Origin: Pseudomonadota bacterium
GTDB taxonomy: Bacteria; Pseudomonadota; Alphaproteobacteria; UBA1280; JAAZVW01
Reading direction: 5' to 3'
NCBI GenBank assembly: GCA_018623135.1
Contig: JAAZVW010000001.1
Location: forward strand, 23,024-87,023
Length of the DNA: 64,000 nt
Shown here: positions 47,341 through 51,607 of the stretch, piece by piece
Position numbering within the stretch: the stretch's first letter is position 1
Layout of the letters: every line of letters begins with the position of its first letter
Made by a program: the position numbers and the translations under genes
The notes under the pieces: generated by a model
Told to the model about the DNA's origin: nothing
Seen by the model: only the letters and a program-made list of their open reading frames with translations
The model's database searches: none

Positions 47341-47718
47341 TTAGACGCCAAAAGAGTTACCGCACCCACAGCTAGATGTTGCGTTTGGGTTGTTGATGAC
47401 AAATTGAGAGGCTTCTAATGTTTCAATAAAATCAATTTCGGAGCCTTTGATAAGCTCGTAAGAAATGGCATCAACAAGTAAAATAGCATCACCATTTTTG
47501 ATTTCTATATCTGCAGGGCCTTTTTTATCTTCAAATTTGAAAGAGTATGAATAACCATTGCATCCGCCACTTAAAACAGAAACACGTAAGAAATCTGTGC
47601 CTTCTGGTTCTGTTTCCATAAGTTTTTCAATGCGACGGGCAGCAGAATCTGTTAAAACAAGATCTATTTTTATATCGTCAGAATTGGCTACTTGTGGTTC
47701 TTCAAATGTGATTTTCAT
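47341..47718 (-). CDS. erpA: iron-sulfur cluster insertion protein (HesB/IscA/ErpA family)
   Basis: VLSGGCNGYSY...CGCGNSFGV gives the three conserved Cys residues. Confidence 0.85.
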   Translation of the reverse strand: MKITFEEPQVANSDDIKIDLVLTDSAARRIEKLMETEPEGTDFLRVSVLSGGCNGYSYSFKFEDKKGPADIEIKNGDAILLVDAISYELIKGSEIDFIETLEASQFVINNPNATSSCGCGNSFGV

Positions 47719-47816
47719 AAAAATACCTAACTAAAGCTTGAAATAAAACATTATTTATACCTATTATATAAGGGATTTTTAGATCACAAACAACCACAAA
47801 TTATAAGGGGTTTATT

Positions 47817-48968
47817 ATGACCTTAGCAGAATATGCAACAGATTGGCGCAAATCTCGCGGCCGTAAATATGAAGAATCTGAATCAGCAACGCGTACGCCG
47901 TTTCAAAGAGATAGGGATCGTATTATTCATTCAGAGGCTTTCAGGCGCTTGCAATATAAAACCCAAGTATTTGTGAACCATGAAGGGGATCATTATCGTA
48001 CTCGATTAACGCATACGATTGAGGTTGCCCAAATTGCACGCTCTATTTGCCGCGCACTTAATTTAGATGAAGATTTAGGGGAGTGTATTGCTCTTGCCCA
48101 TGACTTGGGTCATCCTCCTTTTGGACATGCAGGTGAAGATGCTTTAAATGAAGTAATGAAAGACCTTGGAGGTTACCGCCACAATGAGCAAACACTACGT
48201 TTGGTTTGTGAGCTGGAAAAACGCTACCCTGGCTTTGAAGGCCTTAATTTAACATGGGAAGCAAGAGAAGGTATTGCTAAGCATAATGGCCCAATTAAAA
48301 ATAAACTAGAATTGCAAAACCCACATGTGCAAGCAGTTGAGCCCCATACTTTTGCGGGTTTAGAGGCACAGGTAGCAGCTATTTCTGACGATATTGCTTA
48401 TAATCACCATGATTTGGAAGATGGTTTAACAGGTGGCACGCTTACGTTACAGGAAGTGCGCTCTCGTTTAGCGATTTTTAATAAGTTTTATGAACAAACA
48501 GAAAAAGCTTACCCAGATGCGGACGAGTATGCTCTTATTAGAGAGTCTATTCGCCAAATGATTAATAGATGTGTTGGCGATGTTATTGCAGAAACAACAA
48601 AACGATTAGCTGAAGATAAGCCTAAATCTGTAGAAGATGTTCGTGCTAACAGCCGTCCTTTTGTTGATTTTTCTGATGAGGTTATGGCAGATATTAAAGA
48701 AATGCGTAAGTTCTTATTCCACCGTATGTATCGTCATTATCGTTTAAATAGAATGTCTTTAAAAGCGCACCGTGTTGTTAAATCATTATTTGAAACTTTT
48801 ATGGAACACCGTAGGTGTTTGCCGCATGAAATTCAACATCATCTACCAGAAGACAAGTTTGATGAAGTTGGTAAAGCTAAAGAAATTTGCGACTATATTA
48901 GCATGATGACAGATAGAACGGCTAAACAAGAGTATGAAAAGCTGTTTGATCTTTCTACGCGTACGTAA
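47817..48968 (+). CDS. dgt: dGTP triphosphohydrolase-like HD-domain protein
   Basis: FQRDRDRIIHSEAFRRLQYKTQV...RLTHTIEVAQIARSI...HDLGHPPFGH matches the dGTPase family. Confidence 0.85.
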   Translation: MTLAEYATDWRKSRGRKYEESESATRTPFQRDRDRIIHSEAFRRLQYKTQVFVNHEGDHYRTRLTHTIEVAQIARSICRALNLDEDLGECIALAHDLGHPPFGHAGEDALNEVMKDLGGYRHNEQTLRLVCELEKRYPGFEGLNLTWEAREGIAKHNGPIKNKLELQNPHVQAVEPHTFAGLEAQVAAISDDIAYNHHDLEDGLTGGTLTLQEVRSRLAIFNKFYEQTEKAYPDADEYALIRESIRQMINRCVGDVIAETTKRLAEDKPKSVEDVRANSRPFVDFSDEVMADIKEMRKFLFHRMYRHYRLNRMSLKAHRVVKSLFETFMEHRRCLPHEIQHHLPEDKFDEVGKAKEICDYISMMTDRTAKQEYEKLFDLSTRT

Positions 48969-48977
48969 TTTGAAAAG

Positions 48978-49646
48978 ATGCTAAATAAAATACAATCTTT
49001 TGCTGTAAATACGTTGAGCCGTGTCTTAAATAAAGATGCGGCTTCTCTTTGTTCTGAAATAGAATTTAAAGTAAAAGATGGTCGATATTGCTTTTATATA
49101 GCGCATTTGTTTACGGAACCAACACAACAAAAAATCTATGTTGAAGAGCTTATTAAAAACGCATTTATACAAGAGGTTGTTGTTTTAAAAGGCTTTATTA
49201 ATATAACTTTCTCTGAAATCTTTTTCCAAGATGTACTTGATCAGGCTTTTAGGCAAGGGTTAGGTCGTATGGCATCTGTTTCTTTTAGTGAAACATTGTA
49301 TCAAAAACTCTTATTACAAACGGGTAATGAAGAGTTATCTTATAAACTTACATTTTTTATGTATCGACTAGAGCTTATTCTTACCTCTTATAATTTTATC
49401 CATGAAGATTTTCAAAGCATAATGGTACCAGAGGCTTTAAAAGCTTTTCTTATTGAAGTTATCTATCGTTGTAATCGTATAGAAAAAGCGCATGATTTAT
49501 CTGAAAATAGGATAAATACTCTAAATTATATTTCTAATGTATTTAATCAGAAATATTTATACGAAACAAAGGATCAGCAAAGTTTAATTTTTTATTGTGT
49601 TGCTAAGTTTATTTATAAAAGTTTTGCTTTAAATAATACAGAATAA
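48978..49646 (+). CDS. truncated arginyl-tRNA synthetase-like protein (N-terminal add-1-like domain plus a C-terminal helical region; catalytic core absent); possible argS remnant or pseudogene
   Basis: KVKDGRYCFYIAHLFTE...VVVLKGFINITFSEIFFQDVLDQAF resembles the ArgS N-terminal domain (..GPGFINIFL..). It occupies the syntenic argS position between dgt and the SPOR protein but encodes only 222 aa. Confidence 0.4.
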   Translation: MLNKIQSFAVNTLSRVLNKDAASLCSEIEFKVKDGRYCFYIAHLFTEPTQQKIYVEELIKNAFIQEVVVLKGFINITFSEIFFQDVLDQAFRQGLGRMASVSFSETLYQKLLLQTGNEELSYKLTFFMYRLELILTSYNFIHEDFQSIMVPEALKAFLIEVIYRCNRIEKAHDLSENRINTLNYISNVFNQKYLYETKDQQSLIFYCVAKFIYKSFALNNTE

Positions 49647-49737
49647 GGCCGTTTGAACTTTACACTTTTTAAGTGAGGTGCTAATCTACAGCTTGTATAG
49701 AATTTAATAGAAACAAAAATAAAGAAGGTGACAAAAG

Positions 49738-50556
49738 ATGCGCCACTCTAAGTACGCAGCTTATGCAAAAAATACAAAACCTTATGCCATGTTTAAACGC
49801 GGCGCTTTGCTTGTTGCATTTGCAGGTTTTGTAAGTTTGATCTGGTACACAACAGCCAAAAAAGATGATATTGAATCTGAATTTCTTGAGCCTCCTCTCG
49901 TGAAAGCGCCACAAATGGCCTATAAGGAACGTGCAGAAGATGAGGGCGGTATGAAAGTGCCAAATAGAGATAAGCAGGTGTTTGACCTTTTAAATGCTGT
50001 TTCTGATAAGGTTGATGTGAATTCACCTGAAGCTCAAGAGCAAATTAAACAAGCAGAAGAAAAGCAAAAAGAACTAGCTGCGCAACAAGCTAAGTTGGAT
50101 GCTGAAGCAAAAGCTTTAAAAGAAAAGCAAGCGCAAGAAAAGGCAAAAGCAGTCGCCGCTATGGAAAAAGCGAAAGCAGATGCTAAAAAAGCTGCCGAGT
50201 TAGCTAAATCTGCTGTGGTGACAGAAACGAAAAAAACATCAGAAAAAGTCGCTAAAGTTGTCAATAAAGCAGAGGAAAAAGTAAAAGAATCTGCTAAAAC
50301 TTTAACGGTTGAATATGGTATCCAAATGGGTTCATATCGCAATGCTGCAGATGCAGAACGTGCGAATGATTACTATCGTAAAAAATTCCCAGATGTTCTG
50401 AAAAATATACCGAGCACAGTTAAACGTGTTGATCTGGGCGCTAAAGGTGTTTATTACCGTGCTTACATGAGCGGTTACCCTGATAAAGCATCTGCTAAGG
50501 CGGACTGTGATAAGCTTAAAGCGTTAGGGCATAATTGTTTCTATGCTAAACTCTAG
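49738..50556 (+). CDS. SPOR-domain protein (septal peptidoglycan binding), Lys/Ala-rich coiled linker
   Basis: N-terminal TM. C-terminal SPOR domain YGIQMGSYRNAADAERANDYYRKKFPDV...VYYRAYMSGYPDKASAKADCDKLKALGHNCF. Confidence 0.75.
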   Translation: MRHSKYAAYAKNTKPYAMFKRGALLVAFAGFVSLIWYTTAKKDDIESEFLEPPLVKAPQMAYKERAEDEGGMKVPNRDKQVFDLLNAVSDKVDVNSPEAQEQIKQAEEKQKELAAQQAKLDAEAKALKEKQAQEKAKAVAAMEKAKADAKKAAELAKSAVVTETKKTSEKVAKVVNKAEEKVKESAKTLTVEYGIQMGSYRNAADAERANDYYRKKFPDVLKNIPSTVKRVDLGAKGVYYRAYMSGYPDKASAKADCDKLKALGHNCFYAKL

Positions 50557-51607
50557 GCCTATTTCTCCTTTTATTGTTGCTGTACCTGGACCAGAGCTTG
50601 ATGCACGCACAAAAGAAGCTATAGATAAACTCCGCCCAGCGGGGTTTATCCTCTTTGGTTGGAACTGTAAAGAGCATGCTCAGCTAGAAAAACTTGTTGC
50701 TGAGCTTAAGGAGCTAAGCCCTTTTGCAACACCTCTTATTCTGATTGATGAAGAAGGTGGCCGCGTACGCCGTATTAAGTGGACGCCTTATCAGGCACCA
50801 GCAGCAGAAAAAATAGGTAATCTTTATAATAAAGACCCTAAAATAGCTGTGCGTGCTGCAATGCTTAATGGCTTTTTAACTGCAGCTCAATTGCTTAGTT
50901 ATGGTATTACTTGTACTTGCGCACCTGTTGCTGATGTTAAGTTCCCTGAAACAGATGATGTCATTGGAAATCGTTCTTTTGGATCAGACCCTGAAAAAGT
51001 AGGGCACCTTTGTGGGGCAACAATTTCTGGCTTACTAGCAGGTGGGGTCTGGCCAGTTATTAAGCATGCGCCAGGGCATGGGCGAGCAATGGCAGACTCT
51101 CATAAAGAATTACCAGTTGTAGATGCAATGGCAGGACAGCTTGTTAAGGTTGACTTTAAACCTTTTGAAATGAATGCGGCGGTGCCTTTTGTTATGACAG
51201 CGCATGTTAAATATACGGCATTAGATGCTGAAAATTGTGCAACTCAATCAGCTAAAATAATTCAGATGATGAAAGAAGATATTGGCCTTGAAGGACTAAT
51301 TGTAAGCGATGATCTTACAATGGGCGCTCTTGAAGGTGATATTATTAGTCGAGCAGAAAAATCGTTAAATGCTGGCTGTGACTTGTTATTATATTGCCGT
51401 GGGGACTTGTTCTTAAATGAACTTACAGAAGAAGCCCTTGAAAGTTATTATAATGATTTAAGTGCTCTTTCTGGTAAATTTGAACTTAGCGGTAAAGCAC
51501 ATGCTAAAATACAAAAATTGCCAGCGCTTATGCCACCTAACCCCGATGTTCTTAAAGATTCATATAGAGAATTACTCCAAATTTATGCAGAAAACGGGAT
51601 CGCCTAG
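50543..51607 (+). CDS. nagZ: beta-N-acetylhexosaminidase NagZ (GH3)
   Basis: LILIDEEGGRVRRI and HAPGHGRAMADSH are GH3 NagZ motifs. Confidence 0.8.
   Translation: MLNSRPISPFIVAVPGPELDARTKEAIDKLRPAGFILFGWNCKEHAQLEKLVAELKELSPFATPLILIDEEGGRVRRIKWTPYQAPAAEKIGNLYNKDPKIAVRAAMLNGFLTAAQLLSYGITCTCAPVADVKFPETDDVIGNRSFGSDPEKVGHLCGATISGLLAGGVWPVIKHAPGHGRAMADSHKELPVVDAMAGQLVKVDFKPFEMNAAVPFVMTAHVKYTALDAENCATQSAKIIQMMKEDIGLEGLIVSDDLTMGALEGDIISRAEKSLNAGCDLLLYCRGDLFLNELTEEALESYYNDLSALSGKFELSGKAHAKIQKLPALMPPNPDVLKDSYRELLQIYAENGIA

Follow-up and report, generated by a model that had tools for sequence, protein, structure and literature searches.

We analysed a 64,000-nt stretch of an alphaproteobacterial genome (the window; assembly GCA_018623135.1, contig JAAZVW010000001.1, positions 23,024 to 87,023 of the forward strand; GTDB lineage UBA1280, JAAZVW01) and in it a 222-aa open reading frame (ORF), P0001, here called X, which lies between dgt and a SPOR-domain gene. 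X is very probably the displaced ancestral copy of argS, the gene for arginyl-tRNA synthetase (ArgRS, also ArgS), with its catalytic core deleted. The class holds two groups of ArgS, here called type A and type B, which were split by a search of 40 relatives with the genome's own synthetase (P0002, see below). In the full explanation, which we consider likely, a type B argS between dgt and the SPOR gene would have been superseded by a type A ArgRS encoded elsewhere, and the old gene in the slot would then have lost its whole catalytic Rossmann core through in-frame deletion. The remaining product would be the D-loop-binding additional N-terminal domain (Add1) joined to a helical, most likely DALR-derived C-terminal part. 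It would still be translated as an intact frame right behind dgt and be under weak purifying selection, strongest on the N-terminal domain, while its gene drifts to very low G+C. X and its parts are as follows.

48978..49646, + strand: relic ORF X (P0001), 222 aa, ATG start, from the ORF list
48978..49262, + strand: ArgRS N-terminal (Add1, D-loop-binding) domain, diverged, residues 1-95
49191..49202, + strand: G72-F73-I74-N75, aromatic-x-Asn motif of strand beta4; G, F and N invariant in 4/4 family members
49284..49643, + strand: helical half, residues 103-222, putative DALR remains, from models

The N-terminal domain of X is of ArgRS origin

A preliminary description of the window had proposed that the N-terminal ~90 aa of X resemble the ArgS N-terminal domain; BLASTP, hidden Markov models (HMMs), hhalign, shuffled controls and structure searches all agreed with this. 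BLASTP aligned X 35-93 with residues 38-97 of the type B ArgS of a 0.5-Mb relative (P0004; 33% identity, E = 2e-6), and X 51-89 with residues 66-100 of the genome's own type A ArgS (E = 0.017). Two custom HMMs were built, one on 10 enzymes of type A and one on 17 of type B. All four proteins of the X family matched both HMMs in a colinear manner, at the last helix and hairpin of the N-terminal domain, with scores of 12-14 bits for type B vs 5-7 bits for type A. Profile-profile comparison of the X alignment by hhalign matched type B with 86% probability and E = 5e-6; for type A, E was 8e-5. The score of the N-terminal part against type B N-terminal domains was 49.9; after column shuffling it was 11.5 ± 2.2 (maximum 19.7), and none of 100 shuffles reached the observed score. 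We accept the homology of the N-terminal ~95 aa of X to the ArgRS N-terminal domain despite the fact that the curated cut-off was not reached.

Structural comparison gave the same assignment. In an AlphaFold2 (AF2) model of X, computed from the four-sequence alignment, residues 1-92 were modelled at a predicted local distance difference test (pLDDT) of 75-88 with the topology H-H-E-E-H-E-E-H, and the model shows the alpha/beta fold with two beta-hairpins that is characteristic of Add1 (AF2 and VIA). A prefilter-free VIA search against 48,161 PDB representatives placed ArgRS structures at the top three ranks: 6ao8_A (Z 9.5, 161 residues, X model 1-219), the isolated ArgRS N-terminal domain 3gdz_A (Z 9.1, root-mean-square deviation 2.5 A, 90 of its 106 residues) and 4q2t_A (Z 8.6). 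With 2zuf, 5jld, 1iq0 and 1bs2, the top 17 hold seven entries for ArgRS. The ESM Atlas shape search with X returned ArgRS-related clusters only; its top three were full-length ArgRS (template-modelling score 0.51-0.53 over 173-180 of 222 residues), and rows 4 and 6 agree with the Add1 fold of the N-terminal domain. Foldseek with the whole model returned nothing at E ≤ 0.001, with ArgRS among the weak rows only, and a PDB sequence search with X gave only a chance match (E = 1.3). The N-terminal domain of X is of ArgRS origin, and its likeness to ArgRS exceeds chance.

X lacks the catalytic core, and its C-terminal half probably derives from DALR

X is 222 aa long, vs ~550-610 aa expected of an ArgRS with N-terminal domain, core and DALR domain. 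Neither the whole protein nor its halves matched PF00750 at E ≤ 10, no HIGH or KMSK-type motif was found in it, and the custom type A and type B HMMs matched it solely at the end of the N-terminal domain. At 222 aa, X has no space for the catalytic domain. The Rossmann core with HIGH and KMSK motifs of a functional class Ia ArgRS is missing from X, as the preliminary description had also stated. X cannot aminoacylate and is not a synthetase.

The same description had taken the C-terminal part for a helical one that could correspond to DALR. Its helicity stood: residues ~103-222 are helical in the AF2 models. The correspondence to DALR was only partly supported, with superpositions and the language model for it and sequence profiles against it. 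Whole-model alignments to ArgRS spanned X 1-219/222 (161, 151 and 173-180 residues). When X 97-222 alone was used as the query, its protein language-model neighbours came from DALR/ArgRS families only (scores 0.76-0.81, to be read as a lead) and comprised DALRD3, phage and cellular ArgRS, and bacterial proteins with an N-terminal domain plus DALR. X 108-156 fell colinearly on the start of the DALR region in hhalign, at a non-significant score, and the proteins in the same slot of two relatives, P0008 and P0009, pass DALR_1. X itself has no Pfam DALR_1 (PF05746) match; no ArgRS was within the top 50 for the C-terminal-only model, and a six-frame check under the C-terminal half found no ArgS remains in other frames. 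Even with the further negative results given under the weighing of this reading below, the C-terminal half of X probably descends from the DALR anticodon-binding domain.

X occupies the ancestral argS slot

The neighbours of X in the window are the following.

47341-47718, - strand: erpA-like Fe-S carrier (Pfam)
47817-48968, + strand: dgt, HD phosphohydrolase/dGTPase-like, upstream syntenic anchor (Pfam HD and HD_assoc)
49738-50556, + strand: SPOR-domain protein, downstream syntenic anchor (Pfam SPOR)
50543-51607: nagZ, GH3, follows the SPOR gene (Pfam)

Coordinates and Pfam assignments upheld the earlier placement of a 222-aa ORF at 48978-49646 in the argS slot of the order erpA-dgt-argS-SPOR-nagZ. 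Downstream of nagZ follow genes for an M50 peptidase and a DUF218 protein, and tatABC. Type B argS lies directly downstream of dgt in 15/20 fetched loci of the class, and none of the type A genes adjoins dgt. The order dgt-argS(type B)-SPOR is the norm for Alphaproteobacteria, and X occupies exactly that slot. The same order, on the dgt/SPOR side, was seen in L005, L007, G002, G013, G028 and L068-L071; by Pfam, G013 reads erpA / dgt-argS(574 aa)-SPOR-nagZ. The window's locus is also present in the sequencing runs SRR29936167, SRR29936175 and SRR19664650.

The ATG of X follows the dgt stop after 9 nt, and 91 nt separate X from the SPOR gene. The junction of dgt with the slot gene is tight or overlapping in every lineage (3-5 nt in L007/L008; overlaps in G002 and L068-L071), and the same holds for the ancestral dgt-argS pair. 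The consensus scan placed a promoter-like site at 47738-47767, ahead of dgt, and showed no terminator-like or promoter-like site in the interval between X and the SPOR gene.

A different type of ArgRS is encoded elsewhere in the genome

The assembly from which the window comes (1.52 Mb, 70 contigs, 85% complete) contains one PF00750 catalytic domain, in a 589-aa ORF on contig 26 (P0002) that carries Arg_tRNA_synt_N, tRNA-synt_1d and DALR_1 (Pfam). Full-length enzymes that match P0002 at 40-50% (type A) were present in 5/5 same-order genomes and in a few other families, whereas most Alphaproteobacteria match it at just 25-33% over the first ~170 residues (type B); ArgS lengths in the relatives are 574-613 aa. 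In PDB sequence searches type A was nearest to the Neisseria and E. coli enzymes (6ao8, 4oby) and type B, the slot ArgS, to the Campylobacter enzyme 3fnr. A quick maximum-likelihood tree placed the type A sequences of Alphaproteobacteria in one group (Shimodaira-Hasegawa-like approximate likelihood ratio test 90), separate from 22 sampled sequences of the phylum's other classes. Type A has therefore long been present in this part of the class and is no recent import.

Full-length type B was absent from all type-A-bearing relatives examined, except one genome with both. This genome, G013 (1.6 Mb), has a full-length type B gene in the dgt-SPOR slot (L051:4129-5853, contig 5) and a second ArgS of 547 aa, type-A-like but divergent and on a very long branch (L018; contig 9, 15672-17216); the genome may represent a still-living step of the displacement in which both copies are present.

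We conclude that arginine charging in the window's lineage is done by the type A ArgRS on another contig. The preliminary description had offered a decaying paralog, with a functional argS elsewhere, as one reading of X. A complete argS was indeed found, and a copy that decays beside it agrees with our results; the relation needs amending, since the working argS is a different ArgRS type and not a simple paralogue, and X is therefore the displaced ancestral alphaproteobacterial copy.

Relatives hold a series of deletion stages in the slot

The slot of relatives, searched as had been suggested for intermediate stages of deletion, did hold them. The 574-aa stage is represented by G013, with full type B in the slot. 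At the 322-aa stage, P0008 in G002, a genome of the same order (L042:4726-5694, contig 9), overlaps the dgt stop and matches DALR_1 at 41 bits (E = 2e-10). Its residues 1-200 matched nothing, it had no relatives in the protein collection, and hhalign found no similarity between it and X. The 220-aa stage is P0009 in the dgt-SPOR slot of G028, a type A genome of another family (L066:863-1522, contig 13). The type B HMM matched P0009 with E = 2.6e-24 in two pieces that flank the missing core, residues 55-94 on profile positions 69-108 and residues 113-218 on 452-578, and the protein passes Pfam for both Arg_tRNA_synt_N (26.8 bits) and DALR_1 (32.2 bits). P0009 belongs to a family of 210-220-aa proteins (P0009-P0015; G028 and the metagenomic contigs L068-L071) with 50-56% mutual identity and the same synteny, always between dgt and SPOR and followed by serS, in a lineage that also uses type A. 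Direct similarity of X to this family by hhalign covered 32 columns, the G-F-x-N..F-W stretch only (E = 0.0024), and the X HMM did not retrieve P0009.

At the last stage nothing is left. In G009 and G018, both type A, dgt adjoins the SPOR gene with a 165-230-nt gap. In G003 and G005, of one same-order family, dgt and the relic are both gone, and erpA lies ~120 nt from the SPOR gene in G003 (L050:2441-3718) and ~230 nt from it in G005 (L049:6781-8137). Slot synteny is broken in G001 and G004. A DALR_1 scan of five further type A alphaproteobacterial genomes revealed no relic; its matches were confined to ArgS and a protein of 700-800 aa.

X evolves fast under relaxed but non-zero constraint

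Three other versions of X are known, all in the same synteny: a 222-aa orthologue with 93% identity (L005/L006) and two of 213 aa each with 28-29% identity (L007, L008). A word-indexed search had found the 93% orthologue only; an exhaustive representative search added the two 213-aa orthologues along with a spurious repeat protein. Outside its own family X was not found in 40 relatives or 401 genomes of the class, where the weak matches were ArgS N-terminal domains only.

The ratio of non-synonymous to synonymous substitution rates (dN/dS, omega), a computation also suggested with the preliminary description, indicated relaxed yet non-zero constraint on the fragment. Between the window and L007, X is 30% identical compared with 67-89% for the flanking proteins, and its dN is 0.84 vs 0.08 for dgt. 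L007 and L008 are 42% identical in X vs 93% for the dgt end, with 0 indels in 213 codons; omega was 0.50 for this pair (bootstrap 0.30-0.76), 0.35 in the N-terminal domain and 0.63 in the C-terminal half. X evolves ~10-13x faster than dgt, yet its frame is unbroken in four lineages; the 220-aa family evolves ~3x faster than dgt. In a neutral simulation of X the frame was still open in 0/5000 runs at d ≥ 0.5. A neutrally evolving frame this diverged would have been interrupted, and selection has therefore kept the frame of X and, to a degree, its sequence. The G+C content of X is 28% (GC3 18%) vs 38% for the window.

Weighing the reading of X as a core-less relic

Several results weigh against the reading of X as a displaced, core-less type B argS under weak selection, or against parts of it. 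Neither X nor its halves had a Pfam or NCBIfam match, the PF03485 cut-off not being reached. By sequence, the C-terminal half matched neither DALR nor the relics of 322 aa and 220 aa significantly; hhalign scores of this half against type B DALR and against the C-terminal half of the 220-aa family were not above those of shuffled columns (22/100 and 34/100 shuffles). An AF2 model of the C-terminal half only (pLDDT 73) matched just generic helix bundles (VIA, Foldseek). With the assembly 85% complete, the genome might hold a second argS. The 222-, 220- and 322-aa forms may equally well stem from one shared ancient deletion or from several convergent ones, because the direct similarity of X to the 220-aa family is limited to the G-F-x-N..F-W stretch. 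By the dS of X itself, omega is ~1 between the window and L005 (17.5 non-synonymous and 4.5 synonymous changes; confidence interval 0.41-3.4), and for this reason constraint may have lapsed in the window's own lineage. The fast rate, the loss of half of the A20 pocket (see below) and repeated outright loss favour decay.

A further question is whether X still binds tRNA. In ArgRS, the aromatic residue of the strand motif stacks on A20, an identity nucleotide of tRNA(Arg), and its Asn reads A20 (PMC3956977, PMC8975779). X has K-G-F-I-N-I-T-F-S-E-I-F-F at residues 71-83, and its counterpart in alignments with the genome's own ArgS and with other ArgS is the strand P-G-F-I-N-I-K-L. The pocket for A20 has a second half, the G-D..N hairpin, which is replaced or lost in X, which weakens the case for tRNA binding; it is kept in the 220-aa relatives, where both pocket halves are present. 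X may still grip the elbow of tRNA(Arg), in the A20 region, via its retained G-F-x-N strand, although this or any such tRNA-binding role seems to us possible rather than probable. Otherwise X would be a tolerated, foldable leftover heading for loss. A retained binder and a forced frame fit the data about equally. Omega below 1 concentrated on the N-terminal domain, together with the well-conserved 220-aa cousins, favours some protein-level role.

In its strongest form the binder would be a domesticated tRNA(Arg) adaptor that recognises elbow and anticodon without charging and hands over or shields the tRNA, by analogy with DALRD3/METTL2; we think this rather unlikely. The frame has survived deep divergence, omega being 0.5 overall and 0.35 in the N-terminal domain, G-F-x-N is invariant, the 210-220-aa relatives in another lineage retain both Pfam domains above cut-off, the A20 pocket in both its halves and numerous invariant residues, and DALRD3, the precedent for such an adaptor (PMC7237682), is among the language-model neighbours of X. 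An adaptor is harder to reconcile with a rate ~10-13x that of dgt, with the loss of the G-D..N pocket half in X, with outright loss in sister lineages (G001/G004, G003/G005, G009, G018) and with omega of ~1 in the closest pair; no conserved partner gene was seen beyond the inherited dgt/SPOR neighbours.

The forced frame would be that of a translated spacer, whose product has no function and whose reading frame is kept since a stop or frameshift inside the dgt-...-SPOR-nagZ unit would uncouple translation and lead to downstream polarity. Tolerated changes would then be confined to internal deletions that keep the frame and to clean excision of the whole gene, and therefore chimeras of N-terminal and C-terminal ends would shrink stepwise, which by itself explains the survival of both ends. 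Junctions that are tight or overlapping in every lineage, an X-SPOR interval free of terminator-like or promoter-like sites in the consensus scan, the stepwise sizes (574, 322, 220 and 0 aa), the strong G+C decay of X and again the omega of ~1 in the closest pair agree with this proposal. We nonetheless regard it as doubtful: between L007 and L008 omega is significantly below 1 and lower in the N-terminal domain than in the C-terminal half, hydrophobic-core positions and G-F-x-N are invariant, and AF2 folds the N-terminal domain confidently from four sequences, although the same picture might arise if selection favoured a product that folds and is not toxic.

That X is an unrelated conserved hypothetical protein in the slot, similar to ArgS by chance, is very improbable: curated families gave no match, the PDB sequence search was empty and the similar stretch is short (~35-60 residues), yet 0/100 shuffles reached the score, 4/4 members matched colinearly, independent structure searches ranked ArgRS at the top, and the slot is exactly syntenic and in relatives holds unmistakable ArgRS relics of the same length.

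Relation to known systems

The core-less relic X shares with the alphaproteobacterial type B ArgRS (closest solved structure from Campylobacter jejuni, PDB 3fnr) its slot, orientation and tight coupling to dgt, the Add1 domain including the G-F-I-N strand and the F-W/F-F-Q turn that follows it, and probably the C-terminal helical domain. It differs in lacking ~350 residues, that is the whole Rossmann domain, the signature motifs and insertions, in its ~10x faster evolution, in the loss of half of the A20 pocket and in having no arginine activation. The 210-220-aa core-less family is like X in its slot (dgt-mini-SPOR), its length and the type A ArgRS of its hosts; the end of its N-terminal domain is joined to DALR at ~profile 108/452, and the position of the junction is similar in X. 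Unlike X, these proteins pass both Pfam cut-offs, keep both pocket halves and share 50-56% mutual identity.

Stand-alone bacterial paralogues derived from aminoacyl-tRNA synthetases (aaRS) include HisZ, YadB/GluQ-RS, PoxA/GenX, AlaX and Trbp111. Like X, HisZ, YadB, PoxA, AlaX and Trbp111 are pieces of synthetases in separate genes. Conservation of such paralogues is high, their functions are defined, and in most of them a catalytic or editing module is retained, whereas X consists of tRNA-recognition ends only and, as a displaced orthologue still in its original place, is no paralogue born of duplication. The persistence of aaRS pieces as separate bacterial genes is documented in part in PMC7373986 and PMC3542578. 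DALRD3 is a non-catalytic eukaryotic protein with an ArgRS-type anticodon-binding domain that targets the METTL2 methyltransferase to tRNA(Arg) as an adaptor (PMC7237682), which demonstrates that a module of this kind can on its own direct a protein to tRNA(Arg). It ranks among the proteins closest to X in the language model, a resemblance that serves only as analogy and lead; it is eukaryotic, ~480-550 aa long and partnered by METTL2, and X has neither a methyltransferase partner nor sequence-level homology to it.

By analogy with DALRD3, core-less ArgRS proteins with Add1 fused directly to DALR might arise whenever one ArgRS type supersedes another, and so form a class of tRNA(Arg)-binding proteins in bacteria that recurs, is under selection and acts as non-charging adaptors or sequestrators. 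We consider such a class quite unlikely; if real, X, the 220-aa alphaproteobacterial family and possibly the ~200-aa proteins of Bacillota and Actinomycetota would be its members. In the ESM Atlas, the language-model clusters nearest to whole X were unnamed proteins of 178-213 aa, mostly from Bacillota (0.92). The Atlas also holds stand-alone Arg_tRNA_synt_N clusters, mostly from Actinomycetota, of 202 aa and of 319 aa; among members of the latter, 15% also carry DALR_1. Truncated proteins made of ArgRS ends may be widespread, and if the Bacillota clusters do link to X the phenomenon would recur across phyla. In the literature, which was covered in part, no description of bacterial core-less ArgRS proteins was found, which is no proof of novelty.

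The kinds of event behind X are known ones (aaRS gene displacement, aaRS-derived non-catalytic proteins, gene relics), and its chief interest is the preserved stepwise series. Exchange of synthetase genes between lineages is a known process, but what becomes of the displaced copy can seldom be seen. Here the series in the slot, together with the incoming E. coli-type enzyme, would form a stepwise record of aaRS displacement in which the survivors each time are the tRNA-reading ends without the core, with the frame kept for very long. The question it poses is whether Add1 plus DALR was recruited as a tRNA(Arg) binder or whether operon coupling and polarity forced the in-frame shrinkage. For annotation, such ORFs are now 'hypothetical' and invisible to Pfam, and their recognition avoids false 'missing argS' and 'second argS' calls in small genomes.

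Additional observations at the locus

A terminator-like hairpin lies inside codons 13-25 of X (49016-49044, + strand; 12 pairs, 5 of them G-C, with a T-rich tail). The scan gave 3 such sites vs 1.6 expected, and the one within X may be due to chance.

Between the window and L005, the dS of X is 0.035, 4-5x below that of its neighbours (P about 2e-5). The ~430 nt at 49453-49880, which run from the 3' end of X across the 91-nt spacer into the 5' end of the SPOR gene, have at most 1 difference from this sister strain, vs ~3.5% in the flanking genes; the segment may reflect either a tract of recombination or constraint on a regulatory region.

In G001, a nagZ-like stretch on contig 42 (5569-5925, L048), interrupted by two TGA and one TAG codons, lies beside an intact nagZ-like gene and is probably a pseudogene duplicate.

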